A DNA stretch of 18,343 nt, taken from the IMG/VR virus record IMGVR_UViG_2526164601_000033. One strand, written 5' to 3'. How positions within the stretch are numbered: the first letter of the stretch is position 1; the number at the start of each line of letters is the position of its first letter. Positions 9,165 to 17,500 of the stretch are shown here, in pieces. Below the pieces are notes generated by a model that saw nothing but the letters and a program-made list of their open reading frames with translations, was not told where the DNA came from and searched no databases. Position numbers and translations under genes: made by a program. This stretch comes from a virus. Taxonomy: Duplodnaviria > Heunggongvirae > Uroviricota > Caudoviricetes.

Positions 9165-9899
9165 ATGGAGACTGTTTTTGACGCACTGAAAGCGATGGGA
9201 AAAGCCACGTCGGTAGAGCTGGCTGCGCGACTTGATATCAGTCGTGAAGAAGTACTGAACGAGCTGTGGGAACTGAAAAAGGCTGGCTTCGTTGATAAAA
9301 GCGTATACACCTGGCGTGTGGCTGATAACAACGTTCAGCAGGAACAGCCAGCGCCAGAAGAAACCACCACGGCAACAGAAGCGAAAATCTCAGAGTGCGA
9401 TTTAACCGCGACGATTGAACAACGCGGACCACAAACGGCGGATGAACTGGCTACGCTGTTCGGTACAACATCCCGCAAAGTTGCTTCAACGCTGGCAATG
9501 GCAATCAGCAAAGGTCGTCTGATTCGCGTAAACCAGAACGGTAAAATTCGTTACTGCATACCAGGTGATAATTTACCAGCAGAGCCGAAAGTTGAATCGG
9601 TAGCGGAAACCGATGGTAAAGCCTTTCCTCAGCCAGCCGGTGTTGCGTTACCGGTACAGAAAGATGCAACACAGGAAGATATTAAAACAGAAACTGTGGC
9701 GGACATTGTGCAGTCGCTGCCATCGTTTACTGCAACGCGAGAAGATGATTTGATTTTGCCATCGCTGCATATGGCAAATCGCGAACTGCGTAGGGCGAAG
9801 AATCATGTCCAGAAGTGGGAGCGAGTCTGCGCCGCGCTGCGGGAGCTGAACAAGCACCGGGATATGGTTGCCGGGATTTGTCGGAAGTCCGGGCAATGA
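9165..9899 (+). CDS. Hypothetical phage protein with N-terminal winged-helix-like region (DUF1627-like)
   Basis: 244-aa ORF with GGGAGGAAA SD. The N-terminus ([30 protein letters not shown]) looks like a winged-helix segment. DUF1627 is a loose recollection, not verified. Confidence 0.55.
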
Positions 9900-10060
9900 G
9901 CGGATGGTGCAGGCCTGAAATCATGATACTAACAATGAAGGTAAAATGCATCGGCAGTCTGATTGGTCGTAGTGAGGCGGCGGTCAGGATGAAAGCCCAG
10001 GTTAAGGGAATAAGCCTGATTCTGCGGGGTGATTTTCACCAGTCAACAAAATATCCGTAG
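9896..10060 (+). CDS. Hypothetical 54-aa protein, possibly translationally coupled
   Basis: ATG overlaps the upstream stop (ATGA at 9896-9899). No recognisable motif; short. Confidence 0.3.
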
Positions 10061-10569
10061 CGCGATAACGGTCAAAAATTATGGCGCTGACACTTTTGTG
10101 CCACTGGAGATGACTGTACCTAAGTTCAGGGGAGAAGAACACGTCCGGTGGGATGGTCGGGCCAGATTTAAAGGGCAGGTCATGGCTCCAGCCTGTACGC
10201 TGGCAATGGAGGCTGCCTGGCGGGAAATTGATATGGGAACCACGCCACTCAGGGATTTACTGCCGGTCCAGAGAATAAATTCCTGTTACGGTTACACCAC
10301 TGTGATCTTGCAAGTGCAGGAAAGTAGGTCTACACGGTAACGCGAGTGCGTGTAACTTTTGATGTCATTCCCGTAGAAACACCGGACAAATTTTCGCTGA
10401 CAGGTCATGCAGAAGGTATAAATCTGCAGATTATGGACAATTACGGATATCCGGCAAGAGCCGGAAAAAGCATGCCGCCTCTAATTCTCAGTGGAAGATG
10501 GACTTGATTATACTCATTGCATTGTCAGAAATAGTTATCCATTAAAGGCTGGCTATTCCAAACAGGATG

Positions 10570-10591
10570 TTGATTACAAAAATGTAATCAA
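10570..10591. promoter_or_regulatory. Perfect palindrome TTGATTACA-N4-TGTAATCAA in the promoter region of the binding-protein gene
   Basis: 9-bp perfect inverted repeat with a 4-bp AAAA spacer in an AT-rich intergenic region about 170 bp upstream of the ATG at 10759. -10-like TATAAT at about 10620. Confidence 0.45.
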
Positions 10592-10758
10592 CATGTAAGG
10601 TTTATACTCTTCAATATGCGTATAATTTTCCTTATTTTGTTGACTTTAAATAACAAGCTATGCACGAGGTAAAGTCGGATAAGTTTATCTGGATGTAATA
10701 TATATTATTTGTAGTGTTTATAACTTTATTTCATGATAACCAATAAAAGGAGTTTTTT

Positions 10759-11517
10759 ATGAGGAACATAATGGCAGGTTTTTTAATATTCCTGTCTTCT
10801 GCTGCTTATGCTGATATCAATCTGTATGGTCCTGGTGGCCCGCATACAGCCTTGCTTGATGCAGCCAAACTTTATGCCGAAAAAACAGGTATTATAGTGA
10901 ACGTTCATTACGGCCCACAGAACAAATGGAATGAAGATGCCAAAAAAAATGCAGATATCTTGTTTGGCGCATCAGAACAATCTGCTCTGGCTATCATTCG
11001 GGACCATAAAGACAGCTTCAGTGAAAAAGATATTCAGCCTCTTTATCTGCGAAAAAGTATTTTACTGGTAAAGAAAGGTAATCCTAAAAATATCCGGAGT
11101 ATTGACGACCTGACCAGACCTGGGATTGGCGTAATTGTTAATGATGGTGGTGGTACCAGTAATACATCAGGCACTGGCGTCTGGGAAGATATTGCCGGAC
11201 GTAAAGGGAATATAGAAACTGTCGCCGCAATCCGAAAAAATATTATTTTATATGCGCCCAATAGCGGAACTGCACGTAAGGCTCTTGAGAATCAGCCTGG
11301 AGCAGATGTCTGGATAACCTGGGCTGACTGGGCAGCCAGTAATCCAGAAATTGGTGATGTCGTGGAAATAGCGCCAGACTACGTGATATGGCGTGATATG
11401 AACATTACAGTACGTCAGGATGCAAATGATGAAACCCGTCGATTTGCAGAATGGCTACAAACCGATGAAGCGGCGCCTGCATTCAAAAAATATGGCTGGA
11501 CCAGGAAAGGCACTTGA
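10759..11517 (+). CDS. Periplasmic solute-binding protein, ModA-like (molybdate/tungstate/sulfate-type PBP2 fold), with signal peptide
   Basis: 252-aa ORF with AAAGGAG SD. N-terminal signal-like MAGFLIFLSSAAYA. The blocks ADILFGASEQ, SILLVKKGNPKNI and C-terminal AEWLQTDEAAPAFKKYGW parallel E. coli ModA (ADLFISADQ, SLVVVAPKAS, YDYLKGPQAAEIFKRYGF) as recalled. The gene is AT-rich. Confidence 0.8.
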   Translation: MRNIMAGFLIFLSSAAYADINLYGPGGPHTALLDAAKLYAEKTGIIVNVHYGPQNKWNEDAKKNADILFGASEQSALAIIRDHKDSFSEKDIQPLYLRKSILLVKKGNPKNIRSIDDLTRPGIGVIVNDGGGTSNTSGTGVWEDIAGRKGNIETVAAIRKNIILYAPNSGTARKALENQPGADVWITWADWAASNPEIGDVVEIAPDYVIWRDMNITVRQDANDETRRFAEWLQTDEAAPAFKKYGWTRKGT

Positions 11518-11520
11518 CAT

Positions 11521-11549
11521 CCTCGTCCTTCAGGACGTGGATTCTTTTT
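11521..11549 (+). terminator. Possible intrinsic terminator after the binding-protein gene
   Basis: Imperfect stem CCTCGTCCT / AGGACGTGG followed by ATTCTTTTT. One mismatch in the stem and the T-run is offset. Confidence 0.35.
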
Positions 11550-11852
11550 CCGGATGCCGCGCCAGCGGCATGTAGGGGCAGCTCACAAAACGGAAAAAAT
11601 TGTACGCTAAGCCTCGCCAGGTGAACTGAATTCATTCCGATATGGGAATTCCCATATCGGGCGAAAACGGTTTGCTGTAACGGCAGAGTTAAGTAGGATT
11701 GCTGCGGGTGCTTGAGGCTATCTGCCTCGGGCATGAACACCAACGGCAGATAGATAAAAGCCCCACCCGACTATAAATCGAAGTGAGGCCCCTATATGCT
11801 CGTCACATATAGATTGCCTCTTACGGACCGAAAGGTCAAGGAGAAGCAGGCT

Positions 11853-12008
11853 ATGAAGCAGCAAAAGGCGATGTTAATCGCCCTGATCGTCATCTGTTTA
11901 ACCGTCATAGTGACGGCACTGGTAACGAGGAAAGACCTCTGCGAGGTACGAATCCGAACCGGCCAGACGGAGGTCGCTGTCTTCACAGCTTACGAACCTG
12001 AGGAGTAA
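11853..12008 (+). CDS. hokD: Hok/Gef-family membrane toxin (type I toxin-antitoxin toxin)
   Basis: 51-aa product MKQQKAMLIALIVICLTVIVTALVTRKDLCEVRIRTGQTEVAVFTAYEPEE matches HokD/RelF as recalled. AAGGAG SD. A long structured leader lies upstream, with palindromes at 11637-11660 and 11792-11812. Confidence 0.85.
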   Translation: MKQQKAMLIALIVICLTVIVTALVTRKDLCEVRIRTGQTEVAVFTAYEPEE

Positions 12009-12076
12009 GAGACCAGGCGGGGGAGAAATCCCTCGCCACCTCTGATGTGTCAGGCATCCTCAACGCACCCGCACTT

Positions 12077-13891: not shown

Positions 13892-14257
13892 ATGACTGAA
13901 CGGATAGAATTTGTTTTGCCTTACCCGCCGACGGTGAATACCTACTGGCGACGTCATGGCAATACGTATTTCATCTCGGAAGCCGGAAAGCGTTATCGCC
14001 GTGATGTGGCGCTAATTGTTCGCCAGCAGCGGCTGAAATTAAACCTGTCCGGAAGGCTGGTGATAAAGATTATTGCAGAGCCACCGGATAAGCGCCGTCG
14101 TGACCTGGACAATATCCTGAAAGCACCACTGGATGTGCTGACGCATGCCGGACTTCTCATAGACGACGAGCAGTTTGATGAAATCAATATTGTGCGCGGT
14201 CAGCTCGTTCCTGGTGGGCGGCTGGGGATAAAAATCACAGAACTGGAGTGCGCATGA
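13892..14257 (+). CDS. rusA: RusA Holliday-junction resolvase
   Basis: 121-aa ORF. The blocks LPYPPTVNTYWRRHGN and DKRRRDLDNILKAPLDVLTHAGLLIDDEQ parallel E. coli RusA ([45 protein letters not shown]) as recalled. Confidence 0.9.
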   Translation: MTERIEFVLPYPPTVNTYWRRHGNTYFISEAGKRYRRDVALIVRQQRLKLNLSGRLVIKIIAEPPDKRRRDLDNILKAPLDVLTHAGLLIDDEQFDEINIVRGQLVPGGRLGIKITELECA

Positions 14258-14475
14258 ATAACCACTATTTACAGTTTGTGCGTGAGCAGCTCATTATCGC
14301 CACCGCTGATTTGAGTGGGGCAACAAAAGGTCAGCTTGAAGCCTGGCAGGAGAATGCCATGTTCGATACAGGGCGTTACAGGCGAAAAAAAATCCGGTAC
14401 CGCGATGAAGTGACTGGAAAAATGATAACGCGGGATAATCCACCAATCGTTATTATCCTGCGCCCGGCCCTTTAG
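14254..14475 (+). CDS. Hypothetical 73-aa protein; 3' end runs 10 nt into the first tRNA
   Basis: ATG at 14254 overlaps the rusA stop (ATGA), with GGAG 5 nt upstream. The stop codon TAG at 14473-14475 lies inside the tRNA. It occupies the position where a late antiterminator Q gene would be expected but is too short for one. Confidence 0.35.
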   Translation: MNNHYLQFVREQLIIATADLSGATKGQLEAWQENAMFDTGRYRRKKIRYRDEVTGKMITRDNPPIVIILRPAL

Positions 14476-14541
14476 CTCAGTGGTGAGAGCGAGCGACTCA
14501 TAATCGCCAGGTCGCTGGTTCAAATCCAGCAAGGGCCACCA
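14466..14541 (+). tRNA. tRNA-Ile2-like (anticodon CAU; Met cannot be excluded from sequence alone)
   Basis: Manual cloverleaf: acceptor GGCCCTT/AAGGGCC, D-arm GCTC-AGTGGTGA-GAGC, anticodon loop CTCATAA, T-arm GCTGG-TTCAAAT-CCAGC, encoded CCA. Resembles E. coli ileX-type tRNA as recalled. Confidence 0.8.
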
Positions 14542-14542
14542 A

Positions 14543-14618
14543 CCGCCACTAGCCATCAGGAAAGAGCGTCAACCCTTTAAGTTGAGTGTGCGAGGTTCGA
14601 GTCCCCGGTGGTGGTCCA
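14543..14618 (+). tRNA. tRNA-like sequence, degenerate (possible pseudo-tRNA); predicted anticodon loop CCTTTAA
   Basis: Acceptor CCGCCAC/GTGGTGG (one G-U pair) plus encoded CCA and a canonical GGTTCGAGTCC T-loop. The D-stem has only two Watson-Crick pairs (GCCA versus GAGC), the T-stem has an A-C mismatch, and position 33 is C rather than U. Confidence 0.4.
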
Positions 14619-14631
14619 TTATCGGTATTCT

Positions 14632-14705
14632 GCGTTGTTAGCTCAGCAGGACAGAGCAATTGCCTTCTAAGCAATCGGTCACTGGTTCGACTCCAGTACA
14701 ACGCG
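14632..14705 (+). tRNA. tRNA-Arg (anticodon UCU, reads rare AGA)
   Basis: Manual cloverleaf: acceptor GCGTTGT/ACAACGC, D-arm GCTC-AGCAGGAC-AGAGC, anticodon stem ATTGC/GCAAT with loop CTTCTAA, T-arm ACTGG-TTCGACT-CCAGT. CCA is not encoded. Confidence 0.8.
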
Positions 14706-14721
14706 CTACACTTATTTTCCC

Positions 14722-14746
14722 GGCTCGCTTTTGCGGGCCTTTTTTG
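14722..14746 (+). terminator. Rho-independent terminator after the tRNA cluster
   Basis: Stem GGCTCGC / GCGGGCC (one G-U pair) with TTTT loop, followed by TTTTTTG. Confidence 0.6.
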
Positions 14747-14788
14747 TATCTGCGCCACGCCCGGCGCATACCAACCACAGAGCCTTTC

Positions 14789-14798
14789 GGGGGGGGGG
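14789..14798. repeat. G10 homopolymer tract
   Basis: Ten consecutive G at 14789-14798, about 80 bp upstream of the TerB-like start codon. Confidence 0.9.
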
Positions 14799-14880
14799 AG
14801 CTTACGGAGTGGTCAGTGTGACTTTCTCTGTGGGCAGATCGCTCCCGGGCGTTGGCTCACCCACCCAAAGGAACGTCACG

Positions 14881-15313
14881 ATGTTTGGTATTTTTGGTAA
14901 AAAAAGCCCGCAGAGCGGCAACGGAAATTAAAAAGTTTGAAAAACGCGATCTGGCACAGGTGGTGATTAACGCCGCCTACCTGGTGGCCTGTGCAGATGG
15001 TGAATGTGAGGCTTCCTAGAAAGCGAAGATCGAACAGGTACTGCGTAATCAGCCTGCGCTGTACGCGTTTACGTCAGAAATTAATGCGATTAGCGCAACC
15101 ATTATCGGTCAGCTGGATACGAACTTTAAAACTGGTCGTCGTGCGGCGTTACGTGAGATCGAGGATGTGAAACACGATACGCGTGAAGCGGAAGATGTGC
15201 TGGATGTGGCGGTGGCCATTGCGGAGGCAGACGGCGAAATTGAGCCGGAAGAGCGCAAGGTGCTGGAAGAGATTGCCGGTGTTCTGGGTCTTCGTCTGGA
15301 GAATTACCTGTGA
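14881..15313 (+). pseudogene. TerB-like (tellurite-resistance TerB family) gene disrupted by a frameshift in an A7 tract and an in-frame TAG
   Basis: ATG at 14881 (AAGGAA SD) reads MFGIFGKKSPQSGNGN then stops at 14929-14931. The +1 frame from about 14906 continues ...FEKRDLAQVVINAAYLVACADGECEAS-TAG(15017-15019)-KAKIEQVL...AVAIAEADGEIEPEERKVLEEIAGVLGLRLENYL, ending at 15311-15313. The ADGE..EE motifs are TerB-like as recalled. The frame change maps to the A7 run at 14899-14905. Confidence 0.6.
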
Positions 15314-15477
15314 CGGTAAAACTGCGCCTGACTGTGGCTGCACTCCTGCTGTTTCTGGTGGTGATGGTGGATTTCACCAGCAGAATCATGTCGGTGCTGG
15401 CGGATGGGGTGCTGGTCTGCGGCATTATGGTATTGCTGTGGCCGGTGATAAAAAGAAACAGCCTGCATAATGCTTGA
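15310..15477 (+). CDS. Possible small membrane protein (55 aa, GTG start overlapping the TerB-like stop)
   Basis: The frame reads VTVKLRLTVAALLLFLVVMVDFTSRIMSVLADGVLVCGIMVLLWPVIKRNSLHNA with two hydrophobic segments. GTGA start/stop overlap and no clear SD, so weak. Confidence 0.3.
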   Translation: MTVKLRLTVAALLLFLVVMVDFTSRIMSVLADGVLVCGIMVLLWPVIKRNSLHNA

Positions 15478-15643
15478 TTTTTTGTTTGCTGTTTATTAAA
15501 AACACTTCTGCATGGTGAATCCCCCTGTGCGGAGGGGCGATCAGCAACCAGGTATATGGGATAATCGCGGATTCAGGTGCTGATACTGAATTCACCGGGA
15601 GGCACCCGGCACCATGCAAGAAAAAGAATGTGCATGCAAACAT

Positions 15644-15667
15644 GCCCCTCTCCGGAGGGGCTTTTTT
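15644..15667 (+). terminator. Rho-independent terminator in the intergenic region upstream of the esterase gene
   Basis: Stem GCCCCTC / GAGGGGC with TCCG loop, followed by TTTTTT. Confidence 0.55.
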
Positions 15668-15794
15668 ATGGGTAAAAAATGCCCGAATGGGTTCGGGCAA
15701 CAGCATGAGATACTGATATTGTTGTGTTGTTATCGTGTGGATTTTAACCAGGGTTTATCAGGCTGCGCAACTGCGTGGCCTTTTTTCATTTCTT

Positions 15795-15839
15795 GGGCTG
15801 TAGTCCCCGTGTGTCATTCAGGCTTCCGGACTACAGCCC
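15795..15839. repeat. 12-bp perfect inverted repeat (GGGCTGTAGTCC ... GGACTACAGCCC) with 21-nt spacer
   Basis: Arms at 15795-15806 and 15828-15839, about 45 bp upstream of the esterase ATG. Confidence 0.6.
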
Positions 15840-15882
15840 ACTCCATATCTGATTTAATACACTATCCCGGCCGGGAGGAATA

Positions 15883-16824
15883 ATGACATTTAAACATTAT
15901 GATGTTGTCAGGGCGGCGTCGCCGTCAGATCTTGCGGAAAAGCTGACACATAAACTGAAAGAGGGCTGGCAGCCGTTTGGTAGTCCGGTGGCCATAACCC
16001 CTTATACTCTGATGCAGGCGATTACAGCAGAAGGTGATGTGGTGGTCAGTGGTGCAACTGAGCCGGATTGGTACTACGTCATCGTACTGGCCGGGCAGTC
16101 CAATGCCATGGCTTACGGTGAAGGGCTTCCGCTGCCGGATTCATACGATGCTCCGGATCCGCGCATTAAACAGCTGGCGCGCCGCAGTACAGTGACGCCG
16201 GGTGGGGCTGCCTGCAGATATAACGATATTATTCCGGCCGACCACTGCCTGCATGATGTGCAGGATATGAGTACGCTGAATCATCCGAAGGCAGACCTGA
16301 GCAAAGGGCAGTACGGCTGTGTCGGCCAGGGGTTACATATTGCCAAAAAACTGCTCCCGTATATCCCGAATAACGCGGGGATCCTGCTGGTACCATGCTG
16401 TCGTGGTGGTTCGGCATTTACCCAGGGCGCGGAGGGGACATTCAGTGCGGACACGGGGGCCAGCCAGGATTCGGCGCGCTGGGGTGTGGGTAAACCGTTA
16501 TATCAGGACCTGATTGCGCGCACCAAAGCTGCATTACAGAAGAACCCGAAAAATGTGTTGCTGGCGGTGTGCTGGATGCAGGGAGAGTTTGACATGAGCG
16601 CCGCCACCCACGCACAGCAACCTGCGCTGTTTACAGCCATGCTGACACAGTTTCGTGCTGACCTCTCCGTGTTTAACGCGCAGTGCCATGGTGGCAGTGC
16701 TGCAGATGTGCCGTGGATTTGTGGTGACACGACGTATTACTGGAAAAATACCTACGGCACCCAGTACACCGGGAAAGCAATCGCTGGCGAAGGTGACGTC
16801 AATTCCTCTGGTCAGTCCGGTTGA
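15883..16824 (+). CDS. Sialate O-acetylesterase-like protein (NanS-p-like: N-terminal DUF1737-like segment plus SGNH/SASA esterase domain), apparently truncated
   Basis: 313-aa ORF with GGGAGG SD. Motif LAGQSNAMAYGE (the GQSN block of SGNH/SASA esterases) and WMQGEFD (WxQGESD-like). Synteny with prophage nanS-p paralogues downstream of the tRNA cluster in lambdoid/Stx phages; those are usually much longer. Confidence 0.75.
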   Translation: MTFKHYDVVRAASPSDLAEKLTHKLKEGWQPFGSPVAITPYTLMQAITAEGDVVVSGATEPDWYYVIVLAGQSNAMAYGEGLPLPDSYDAPDPRIKQLARRSTVTPGGAACRYNDIIPADHCLHDVQDMSTLNHPKADLSKGQYGCVGQGLHIAKKLLPYIPNNAGILLVPCCRGGSAFTQGAEGTFSADTGASQDSARWGVGKPLYQDLIARTKAALQKNPKNVLLAVCWMQGEFDMSAATHAQQPALFTAMLTQFRADLSVFNAQCHGGSAADVPWICGDTTYYWKNTYGTQYTGKAIAGEGDVNSSGQSG

Positions 16825-17263
16825 GTTTTCGACATCATCGTGGCGGCGGGCTGTTCTGTCTCTTGAAGAACATCATAAAGCCTGGTTGTTGTGGTGTTAC
16901 AGCGGGAGTATTTGTTGGGAATATCAGATCGCGATAACACAGTGGGCGTGGAATGAATTTAATACTCAATCCGGTACCAGAAAAATTGCTGGGAAAACGC
17001 AGGAACGCCTGAAAAAATTAATCTGGCTGGCGGCGCAGGCAGTAAAAGCAGAACTTTTTGGTGGGGAAGGTTATGAATATCAGGAGCTGGCATTACTGGC
17101 GGGAGTGACAACTAAAAACTGGTCCAAAACATTTACTCGTCACTGGGTTGCAATGAAACACATTTTTCACCGACTGGATAGTGAGGCTTTATTATTTGTA
17201 ATGAGAACACGTTCAAAACAAAAGGCGGCATTTTCAAAGCAATGTGTTGCAAAAGTAGATTGA
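16825..17263 (+). other. Open reading frame without a credible start, in a different phase downstream of the esterase stop (possible frameshifted C-terminal remnant)
   Basis: The track ORF 16655-17263 is stop-free for 202 codons but has no ATG with an SD after 16824. The part upstream of 16824 is the alternate frame of the esterase gene. Confidence 0.3.
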
Positions 17264-17326
17264 AAGGCATATATTTCATGCAAATCTGATATTTTGCCGA
17301 TTTTGTACGTGATGGCAAAAGCAAAC

Positions 17327-17354
17327 AAAACCCGCCCACAAGCGGGTTTTGTTG
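17327..17354 (+). terminator. Rho-independent terminator (hairpin plus T-run)
   Basis: Stem AAAACCCGC / GCGGGTTTT with CCACAA loop, followed by GTTGT. An A-run precedes it, so it could act in both directions. Confidence 0.6.
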
Positions 17355-17500
17355 TGCCACTTATCTCGGATAGACATGGTGAATGCGCTGGTGGAGGAGA
17401 TAAGGGTGATTTTTGTATGCTTGCAACATTGATTTCGTAACACACCATTTACGGGGCGTACAAAAACAGGGAGAGTGAGGGCGTTTATTTTGTGCCCTTC

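Follow-up and report, generated by a model that had tools for sequence, protein, structure and literature searches.

paa/adfO of an ompW-integrated lambdoid prophage lies in a mobile cassette with a candidate regulatory block upstream

In the 18,343-nt stretch of viral DNA analysed here (the window), we identified the gene at 10759-11517 as paa/adfO of the lambdoid prophage integrated at ompW (Sp9 in Sakai; CP-933O/OI-57 in EDL933). The region very likely forms a self-contained cassette composed of an upstream element, a -10 hexamer, a ribosome-binding site, a gene of 252 codons and a terminator; it encodes a protein of the AcfC/PEB3/Paa family that is predicted to be exported and to have an anionic ligand, and its upstream block would be bound by a regulator. 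Positions are those of the window, and every stranded feature given below lies on its plus strand; the insert and its two repeats carry no strand.

The open reading frame is genuine. It encodes 252 aa plus a stop, follows a Shine-Dalgarno sequence read as AAGGAG (10747-10752) 6 nt 5′ of the ATG, and its product, a periplasmic solute-binding protein, matches Paa/AdfO (ECs_1772, z2053) of the E. coli O157:H7 prophage Sp9/OI-57 at 100% identity. At the nucleotide level, the 1,177 nt from 10380 to 11556 are 100% identical to O157:H7 Sakai and PPompW phages. The Sakai annotation of prophage Sp9 reads [quoted passage not shown], and “AcfC family adhesin Paa” is the name both of the identical protein in PGAP and of the cluster representative. 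The gene was found in 623 of 5,426 complete E. coli genomes. The initial annotation, made from the sequence, had presented the protein as uncharacterised, which is incorrect: it has long been in use as a virulence marker of STEC/EPEC, and phenotypes of mutants have been published (PMC8565820). According to that review, adfO mutants show lowered HeLa adherence, paa/adfO mutants form fewer A/E lesions, and the secretion of several other proteins is also altered in the adfO mutant (PMC8565820). Expression of ECs1772 has been seen in the lysogen and varies with growth phase (PMC2241611).

The gene lies in a variable insert of ~1.8 kb (9873-11663) in a Rac-like lambdoid backbone. The homology of other Rac-like and Stx phages to the window extends to ~9865-9872 on the ydaV/ydaW side and resumes from ~11664-11687 on the hok/sok side. 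Because no empty-site prophage was found (no contiguous record joining 9640-10040 to 11600-12010 in 5,426 E. coli genomes), the limits of the insert come from this mosaic comparison only. The insert contains a small ORF, a fimbrial pseudogene, paa and two inverted repeats. The ORF (9896-10060), annotated by PGAP/RefSeq in identical prophages, encodes a hypothetical protein of 54 aa for which a Pfam search returned no match. The pseudogene (10065-10598; PGAP) is that of a papH/pixH-like fimbrial minor subunit, with a frameshift and an internal stop. An intact homologue in the pap-like operon of FT130 is 86% identical over 10093-10557, a tblastn search returned PixH/fimbrial proteins at 68-70%, and the fimbrial homology ends at ~10557-10560, 5′ of the first inverted repeat. 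As paa came with this decayed fimbrial gene, it looks like a captured piece of a larger locus. A perfect palindrome of 24 bp, CCGATATGGGAATTCCCATATCGG (11637-11660), marks the insert's right edge; it is unrelated to the repeat at 10567-10594, folds at -21.2 kcal/mol (z -4.45) and is present as a single copy per genome, confined to genomes with the paa prophage. The right neighbour is hokD (ckf; 11853-12008), the toxin gene of a hok/sok-type module, as annotated by PGAP in identical prophages.

The description of paa as an AT-rich, moron-like prophage insert located between the replication module and hok is upheld. The GC content is 26% at 10599-10758, 40% at 10346-10598 and 44% in the paa coding sequence, versus 48-52% in the flanks. 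In the annotation of identical prophages, the gene has replication genes (O/P-like, DUF1627) on one side and hokD on the other, and the insert is absent from the Rac-like and Stx phages that share both flanks.

Blastn of the window against plasmid loci delimited the paa cassette, of ~1 kb, to 10555/10573-11577. It is shared at 85-86% with unrelated plasmids, namely, pE105-3 and p2013C-3244 of E. coli and pEA26_2 of E. albertii, and its boundaries recur in three plasmid contexts, with the inverted repeat marking the 5′ edge. Both an intrinsic-terminator-like hairpin, CGTCC-TTCA-GGACG with a T-rich tail (11524-11549), 7 nt past the stop codon, and the consensus -10 hexamer TATAAT (10621-10626) of the putative paa promoter, invariant in five lineages, lie inside this mobile unit.

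The repeat at the 5′ edge had been noted as a perfect 22-bp palindrome (TTGATTACA-AAAA-TGTAATCAA, 10570-10591) and a candidate operator for a dimeric regulator. It is real and non-random (0.01 matches to the 22-bp form are expected per window, even with three mismatches), and no second copy was found in the window. In fact, its arms are 12 bp long (ATGTTGATTACA-AAAA-TGTAATCAACAT, 10567-10594), and it is a perfect inverted repeat and not a strict palindrome because the 4-nt AAAA spacer is not self-complementary. A genome-wide search found the 42-nt block that contains it once per E. coli genome, at paa loci only, which rules out a mobile repeat such as a MITE, an IS end or a REP element. We aligned five diverged paa lineages (prophage, one metagenomic, E. 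albertii, pPapM-36-2 and pE105-3). Upstream of the gene, only ATTACA-AAAA-TGTAATCA, yGTmAG and TATAAT are conserved in all five, the mean column identity being otherwise 60%. Arm complementarity is 12/12 in the prophage, 10/12 in the metagenomic lineage, 8/12 in E. albertii, 7/12 in pPapM-36-2 and 6/12 in pE105-3. In each arm, the outer six bases are for the most part specific to the prophage, and the inner arms ATTACA/TGTAAT are kept in 5/5 lineages, apart from a single left-arm substitution in E. albertii. Of the initial proposal, the conserved core beside a conserved -10 stands; the 22-bp dimer site as drawn is not kept by selection, since only the inner 6-bp arms are conserved across lineages.

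Alignments and a motif scan define a conserved block, ATT(A/G)CA-A(A/C)AA-TGTAATCA-N3-4-yGTmAG-sTTyA (10573-10604), as a candidate regulator-binding region. Conservation is weaker in its left half than in its right half or in a third, direct hexamer, and the element may therefore lack the symmetry of a dimer site. No -35 was recognisable 16-18 nt from the TATAAT, which is why a consensus scan lists no full sigma-70 promoter there. Transcription would start a few bases 3′ of the hexamer, and the block, holding the core of the inverted repeat, would then sit at about -60 to -29. Most likely, judging from the conservation pattern, this block is a candidate host-regulator site beside an activator-dependent promoter; it would bind a host-encoded regulator, and the site would travel with the cassette between prophage and plasmids. 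The element is absent upstream of the Salmonella, Citrobacter, Yersinia, E. albertii chromosomal, Edwardsiella, Enterobacter, Aeromonas and Francisella homologues. In a scan of a genome collection, its 18-mer core ATTACAAAAATGTAATCA was scattered in unrelated, mostly AT-rich taxa, with no Enterobacterales among the matches listed.

A plausible but less likely alternative is that the repeat is a non-regulatory lineage accident or a scar at the junction of the fimbrial remnant and the paa cassette, and that its core is a part of the promoter (a UP-like A-tract and its flanks). The repeat spans the 5′ edge of the cassette, where homology begins at 10555-10573, ~10 nt past the end of the fimbrial homology; the outer arm halves have diverged in pE105-3 and pPapM-36-2; the AAAA spacer and the bases 3′ of the right arm are conserved equally with the arms; and the E. 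albertii substitution falls in the left arm. In addition, the perfect form is confined to a near-clonal set of prophages (576 records at at least 99%). However, 12 perfect base pairs are far from chance, the metagenomic lineage retains 10 of 12 with one pair apparently compensated, and the 6+4+6 core is invariant amid DNA diverged to ~60% identity. A role for the repeat as an RNA hairpin, stopping read-through from the early (replication) operon of the phage before paa or insulating the gene from it, is far less likely. Such a hairpin would be on the same strand as the replication genes and downstream of them, and the stem (-15 kcal/mol, z -4.7) forms in the prophage lineage only, but the U-tract is absent and a terminator scan made no call at this position. 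Moreover, the plasmid-lineage RNAs fold no better than shuffled sequences (z +0.4 and -0.9), so the conserved feature is the sequence and not the pairing, and we rejected a hairpin or terminator as that feature.

Returning to a regulator-bound block, we compared it by eye with operator consensuses for FNR (TTGAT-N4-ATCAA), IHF (WATCAA-N4-TTR), CRP, LexA, Fur and TyrR and with integron attC core sites. The spacing is wrong for FNR, the half-site order is opposite to that of a TyrR box, the order and sequence are wrong for attC, and the IHF match is imperfect and lost in two lineages. There is no match to CRP, LexA or Fur sites, and regulation of ECs1772 by Fur has also been excluded experimentally (PMC4382993). 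The pentamer GTAA(T/G) does occur three times in the block, twice as direct copies phased at 11 bp and once inverted. We tentatively propose, as a possible but rather unlikely reading, that 10573-10604 is a docking site of the OmpR/CpxR type (two-component or envelope-stress) that the prophage lineage extended to a 12-bp dyad, changing its regulation. GTAAT-N6-GTAAG fits the CpxR consensus GTAAA-N4-8-GTAAA (PMC9603713) loosely; the fit is a lead only, because the window contains 5 occurrences of the relaxed pattern versus 1.7 expected. If this were true, the mobile paa cassette would be wired into a host regulon on any carrier replicon.

Sequence comparisons place Paa in the AcfC/PEB3/Paa family, with the class II periplasmic solute-binding fold. 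A phmmer search of the PDB matched PEB3 at E=1.2e-81 (residues 11-248) and AcfC at E=3.5e-81, over the full length, and Paa is 54% identical to C. jejuni PEB3 along the entire mature protein (BLASTP). The signal peptide of the initial annotation is confirmed as residues 1-18 (10759-10812), with predicted cleavage after AYA: the N-terminus, MRNIMAGFLIFLSSAAYA followed by DINLYGPGG, has signal-peptidase-I features and no lipobox Cys, and the crystallised mature PEB3 chains begin at the residue aligned with Paa D19. Paa is thus predicted to be Sec-exported and to lose its signal peptide, leaving a mature protein of ~230 aa. In 23 family members, down to 52% identity, the invariant positions are GPGGPH (24-29), S72/Q74/S75, SNTSGTG (134-140), W142-E-D, NSG (168-170), W185, T187-W188, D190-W191 and R212. 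Within SNTSGTG, Paa T136/S137 align with PEB3 T138/S139, and in work attributed to Min et al. in 2009, a PEB3 T138/S139 mutant reportedly loses ligand binding.

A homology check on the ligand pocket, as initially suggested, led to the PEB3/AcfC family and its invariant loop, through which, together with the neighbouring invariant residues, a small anionic ligand would bind Paa. PEB3 has been described as a transporter or binder of 3-phosphoglycerate-type compounds (PMC12469816, PMC5424204). AcfC is periplasmic, binds sulfated glycans, mediates mucin chemotaxis and has been proposed to be a sulfate-binding protein (PMC5976639). By analogy with PEB3 (3-phosphoglycerate, PEP) and AcfC, the likeliest ligand of Paa is a metabolite that is phosphorylated or sulfated/carboxylated, rather than molybdate. 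The ligand class is uncertain because the AcfC data concern sulfate and sulfated glycans and the PEB3 data concern phosphorylated C3 acids.

The initial observation that the gene has no permease or ATPase partner stands: none was found in the window or annotated in the identical prophage regions of Sakai, 2015C-4944 and E2865. A search for a cognate transporter likewise found no co-oriented adjoining permease or ATPase gene at four distant chromosomal loci of the family (Edwardsiella, Enterobacter, Francisella and Aeromonas) or in the plasmid contexts, and members of the AcfC/PEB3/Paa family elsewhere are orphans too. Paa would then work without a dedicated ABC permease, as its relatives do, and for this reason the effect on adherence and colonisation described for it in the literature probably arises indirectly, via sensing, chemotaxis or uptake by a host system. 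A direct effect through the binding of anionic host glycans is possible.

The leading idea of the initial annotation, that Paa is a ModA/Sbp-type scavenger of molybdate, tungstate or sulfate for the host ModBC or CysUWA, now appears improbable. “ModA-like” is correct insofar as Paa is assigned to SBP_bac_11 (PF13531), the Pfam family of ModA, but fails in any specific sense, as all ModA and Sbp models score below their cut-offs. Paa reaches 18.3 bits versus 62.5 for the ModA equivalog TIGR01256, 11.7 versus 253 for PRK10677 and 17.7 versus 470 for PRK03537, and 22.6 versus 288, 21.5 versus 155.5 and 19 versus 308 bits for the Sbp/CysP NCBIfam models, whose matches are local (residues ~93-146 only). 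Among PDB entries, the sulfate-binding proteins 1sbp and 6ddn match at E~1e-4, but ModA structures only at E~0.1 (0.13). The shared Pfam family, the weak local matches to these models and to the sulfate-binding structures, and the proposal of AcfC as a sulfate-binding protein would favour a scavenger; however, the evidence is ELISA on mucin and the sulfated glycosaminoglycans heparin and chondroitin sulfate, not on free sulfate (PMC5976639), and the ligands reported for PEB3, the closest characterised relative, are phosphorylated C3 acids (PMC12469816). It is doubtful, though possible, that Paa is a true surface adhesin that contacts host receptors directly, with the solute-binding fold serving as a lectin-like module. 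The PGAP name, the lowered adherence of the mutants and their diminished A/E lesion formation (PMC8565820) and the AcfC ELISA binding (PMC5976639) agree with this. Nevertheless, Paa has a type I signal peptide only and no lipobox, beta-barrel, autotransporter or fimbrial features; AcfC is found in the periplasmic fraction, and adhesion to Caco-2 and HT-29MTX cells is unchanged when it is deleted (PMC5976639). The altered secretion of other proteins in the adfO mutant (PMC8565820) suggests an indirect effect, and the family-wide invariance of the buried-pocket motifs points to a role in binding a small ligand.

As paa/adfO (OI-57) is already in use as a molecular marker of STEC and EPEC risk, and structures of the family (PEB3, AcfC) have been solved, finding the gene again adds nothing new. 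The limits of the mobile cassette, the conserved element near the promoter and the invariant residues of the pocket are handles on the way in which an orphan periplasmic binding protein could promote adherence and on the control of its expression, a modest and incremental gain and not a discovery.

Based on these comparisons, the system closest to the window is the paa/adfO locus of Sakai and EDL933, with the same papH-like pseudogene 5′, hokD/ckf 3′ and integration at ompW; the paa locus itself shows no differences. Past 14448, however, the late region of the window differs in arrangement from the reference prophages, with an apparent 673-bp relocation (junctions 14448|14449, 16768|16769 and 17441|17442) that would split gene Q. 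PEB3 (Cj0289c; PDB 2hxw/3fir/3fjg/3fjm) has the SNTSGTG loop, a type I signal peptide and no adjoining ABC transporter, like Paa. However, it is N-glycosylated at a DFNVS sequon where the aligned Paa segment, DSFSEKD, lacks one, its K135 is T133 in Paa, and peb3 is chromosomal and under BumSR (PMC12469816), whereas paa is on a prophage. AcfC (VC_0841 of V. cholerae, PDB 4jb7) is 47% identical to Paa (PMC5976639) and is likewise a periplasmic, horizontally acquired colonisation factor with no partner transporter; acfC shares a transcript with the chemoreceptor-like acfB and is controlled by ToxR/ToxT (PMC5976639), whereas paa is monocistronic, with no chemoreceptor gene nearby. ModA, Sbp and CysP share the class II periplasmic-binding fold and PF13531 with Paa, but Paa fails their curated cut-offs, has no modBC or cysUWA neighbours, and has closest characterised relatives that bind organic anions. 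Finally, like the lambdoid morons (bor, lom and sopE-type cargo), paa is an extra gene of atypical composition between conserved phage modules, with its own predicted -10 and terminator, expression in the lysogen (PMC2241611) and a link to host fitness or virulence; unlike them, paa came with a decayed fimbrial gene, and its cassette also circulates on F-type plasmids.

The gene behind the upstream inverted repeat, a 252-codon ORF at 10759-11517 (+), is the long-known virulence-associated paa/adfO and not the uncharacterised ModA relative proposed in the initial annotation. A region of 1,177 nt is 100% identical in E. coli O157:H7 Sakai, where the counterpart, ECs_1772, is annotated as [quoted passage not shown] and lies in “prophage Sp9; lambda-like phage”, with its integration site adjoining ompW. 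Deposited PPompW phages show the same 100% identity over the paa region, and PGAP names the product “AcfC family adhesin Paa”. The gene is present in 623 of the 5,426 complete E. coli genomes, in 582 chromosomal and 52 plasmid places. The top PDB matches of Paa are Campylobacter jejuni PEB3 (1.2e-81, residues 11-248; 54% identity) and Vibrio cholerae AcfC (3.5e-81), with weaker matches to sulfate-binding proteins (about 1e-4) and to ModA (just 0.13). Paa is assigned to the Pfam family SBP_bac_11, but it scores far under the cut-offs of every NCBIfam ModA and Sbp/CysP model and is therefore “ModA-like” only in sharing a Pfam family with ModA. According to PMC8565820, adfO (z2053) is carried by OI-57/CP-933O and is always accompanied by ckf, a hok-like neighbour gene, and an adfO mutant adhered poorly to HeLa cells and secreted less of several proteins.

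The view of paa as a moron, already put forward from the sequence, is well supported by its composition, its own signals, and a mosaic comparison. In a 400-nt composition profile, GC falls to a minimum of 33-35% across 10401-11000, against about 48-55% on both sides; by segment, the 160 nt that precede the start codon have 26%, 10346-10598 has 40%, and the paa coding sequence has 44%. AAGGAG stands at the Shine-Dalgarno position 6 nt 5′ of the ATG, the N-terminus (MRNIMAGFLIFLSSAAYA|DINLYGPGG) is a typical type I signal peptide with no lipobox cysteine, and a terminator-like hairpin, ending in a T-rich tail, follows at 11524-11549. The homology of Rac-like and Stx relatives to the window ends at about 9865-9872, on the ydaV/ydaW side, and resumes at about 11664-11687, on the hok/sok side; these phages have no match in between. 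No “empty site” uniting both flanks was found in the complete-genome set. On the left side, the DUF1627 (ydaW-like) gene at 9165-9899 is intact in the window (a 244-codon ORF) and annotated by PGAP as frameshifted in the near-identical 2015C-4944 and E2865 prophages.

The resulting insert of ~1.8 kb holds a 54-codon ORF, a decayed fimbrial gene, paa, the terminator-like hairpin, and a second palindrome. Within it, paa appears to form a smaller mobile unit. F-type plasmids of E. coli and E. albertii carry paa-like genes (86-94% amino-acid identity) in entirely different surroundings, and in three plasmid contexts the homology to the window starts at 10555-10573 and ends at 11572-11577; these recurring limits define a cassette of ~1 kb, in which the repeat is the first conserved feature and the terminator the last. 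Fimbrial homology stops ~10 nt left of the repeat. Directly 5′ of paa lies a papH/pixH-like minor-subunit pseudogene (10065-10598; frameshifted, with an internal stop according to PGAP), whose intact counterpart belongs to a pap-like operon in strain FT130 (86% match to 10093-10557); PixH-like plasmid genes share 68-70% amino-acid identity with the pseudogene. On one E. coli plasmid and in Aeromonas, paa-family genes are found near chaperone-usher or PapB/FaeA-type regulator genes. This remnant and these fimbrial-type neighbours hint that the cassette may have been captured from a fimbrial locus. The second palindrome, a perfect 24-bp CCGATATGGGAATTCCCATATCGG at 11637-11660 with an EcoRI site at its centre, is unrelated to the upstream repeat; it lies in the 86 nt that separate the cassette end (11577) from the point where hok/sok homology begins (11664), folds as RNA at -21.2 kcal/mol (z -4.45), and occurs once per genome, in paa-prophage genomes only.

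The reported 22-bp palindrome, at 10570-10591, is present and non-random (0.01 matches expected per shuffled window with three mismatches permitted), but it is longer than described, with perfect 12-bp arms ATGTTGATTACA / TGTAATCAACAT around AAAA at 10567-10594, and the full dyad is not what is conserved. We compared the upstream regions of five paa lineages: the window, pE105-3/p2013C-3244, pPapM-36-2, E. albertii pEA26_2, and a metagenomic E. coli contig. Against a mean column identity of 60%, two blocks stand out, namely ATT(A/G)CA-A(A/C)AA-TGTAATCA followed by 3-4 variable bases and yGTmAG-sTTyA (10573-10604), and TATAAT (10621-10626), 16-17 nt beyond it. All 12 bp of the arms are complementary in the window, against 10 in the metagenomic lineage, 8 in E. 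albertii, 7 in pPapM-36-2, and 6 in pE105-3. As a rule, the lineages retain just the inner 6 bp of each arm, and conservation is stronger in the right half and in a third, directly oriented hexamer than in the left half. The repeat folds well as RNA in the prophage lineage only (-15 kcal/mol, z -4.7), and the poor folding in plasmid lineages (z +0.4 and -0.9) argues that the constraint acts on the DNA sequence and not on pairing. We read the perfect 12-bp dyad as an elaboration particular to the prophage lineage, whose significance is uncertain.

No acceptable -35 element lies 16-18 nt from the TATAAT, and a consensus scan found no full promoter there. In our reading, the first conserved block (10573-10604) is probably where a regulator binds: it would span about -60 to -29 relative to the start of an activator-dependent promoter and move with the cassette. 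A dispersed repeat was ruled out, as the 42-nt block occurs in a single copy per genome and at paa loci only; the element is absent upstream of more distant paa homologues. The CpxR tandem consensus quoted in PMC9603713 fits the block loosely, but the relaxed pattern turns up in the window more often than expected (5 matches versus 1.7), so CpxR is only a lead. ECs1772 transcription shifts on entry into stationary phase (PMC2241611) and shows no Fur dependence (PMC4382993).

Elsewhere in the window, a 673-bp block (16769-17441), comprising the 3′ part of antiterminator gene Q and downstream DNA, is relocated relative to near-identical reference prophages. Compared with the E. coli E2865 prophage (99.9% identical), it lies 2.3 kb further downstream, within the SASA/NanS-p esterase gene, which it breaks; Q is split into Pfam halves at 14248-14475 and 16655-17263. 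The affected stretch is 14449-17441, with junctions at 14448|14449, 16768|16769, and 17441|17442, the first of which is absent from all 5,426 complete E. coli genomes. This may be a real rearrangement, in which case late-gene antitermination would be inactivated, or a sequence artefact. Three phage-borne tRNA genes at 14466-14706 are Met-type with a CAT anticodon (labelled tRNA-Ile in references), Lys-TTT, and Arg-TCT; of these, just the Ile and Arg genes are found at this place in the prophages of Sakai and E2865.

Taken together, the initial observation was accurate, and its reading of the locus in structural terms, as an orphan binding protein, a moron, and a non-random repeat, was largely right. 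To the already known gene this analysis makes three small additions: it sets limits to the cassette, describes a conserved promoter-proximal element, and shows that conservation does not extend to the full 22-bp dyad first reported. The missing transporter partner is a trait of the whole family and not an oddity of the prophage copy, as plasmid copies are solitary too and the chromosomal homologues of Edwardsiella, Enterobacter bugandensis, Francisella, and Aeromonas are isolated genes, each flanked on either side by a long intergenic gap. When Paa was aligned with 22 relatives, the most distant at 52% identity, drawn from Enterobacterales, Aeromonas, Vibrio, Francisella, Helicobacter, and Campylobacter, the invariant residues were GPGGPH (24-29), S72/Q74/S75, SNTSGTG (134-140), W142-E-D, NSG (168-170), W185, T187-W188, D190-W191, and R212. 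Paa T136/S137 align with PEB3 T138/S139, whose mutation reportedly abolished ligand binding in the work of Min et al. in 2009; PDB entries 3fir and 3fjg differ by K135E, which is consistent with this result. The other close relative, AcfC, is located in the periplasm and binds sulfated glycosaminoglycans and mucin; chemotaxis towards mucin depends on it, whereas adhesion to cells does not (PMC5976639).
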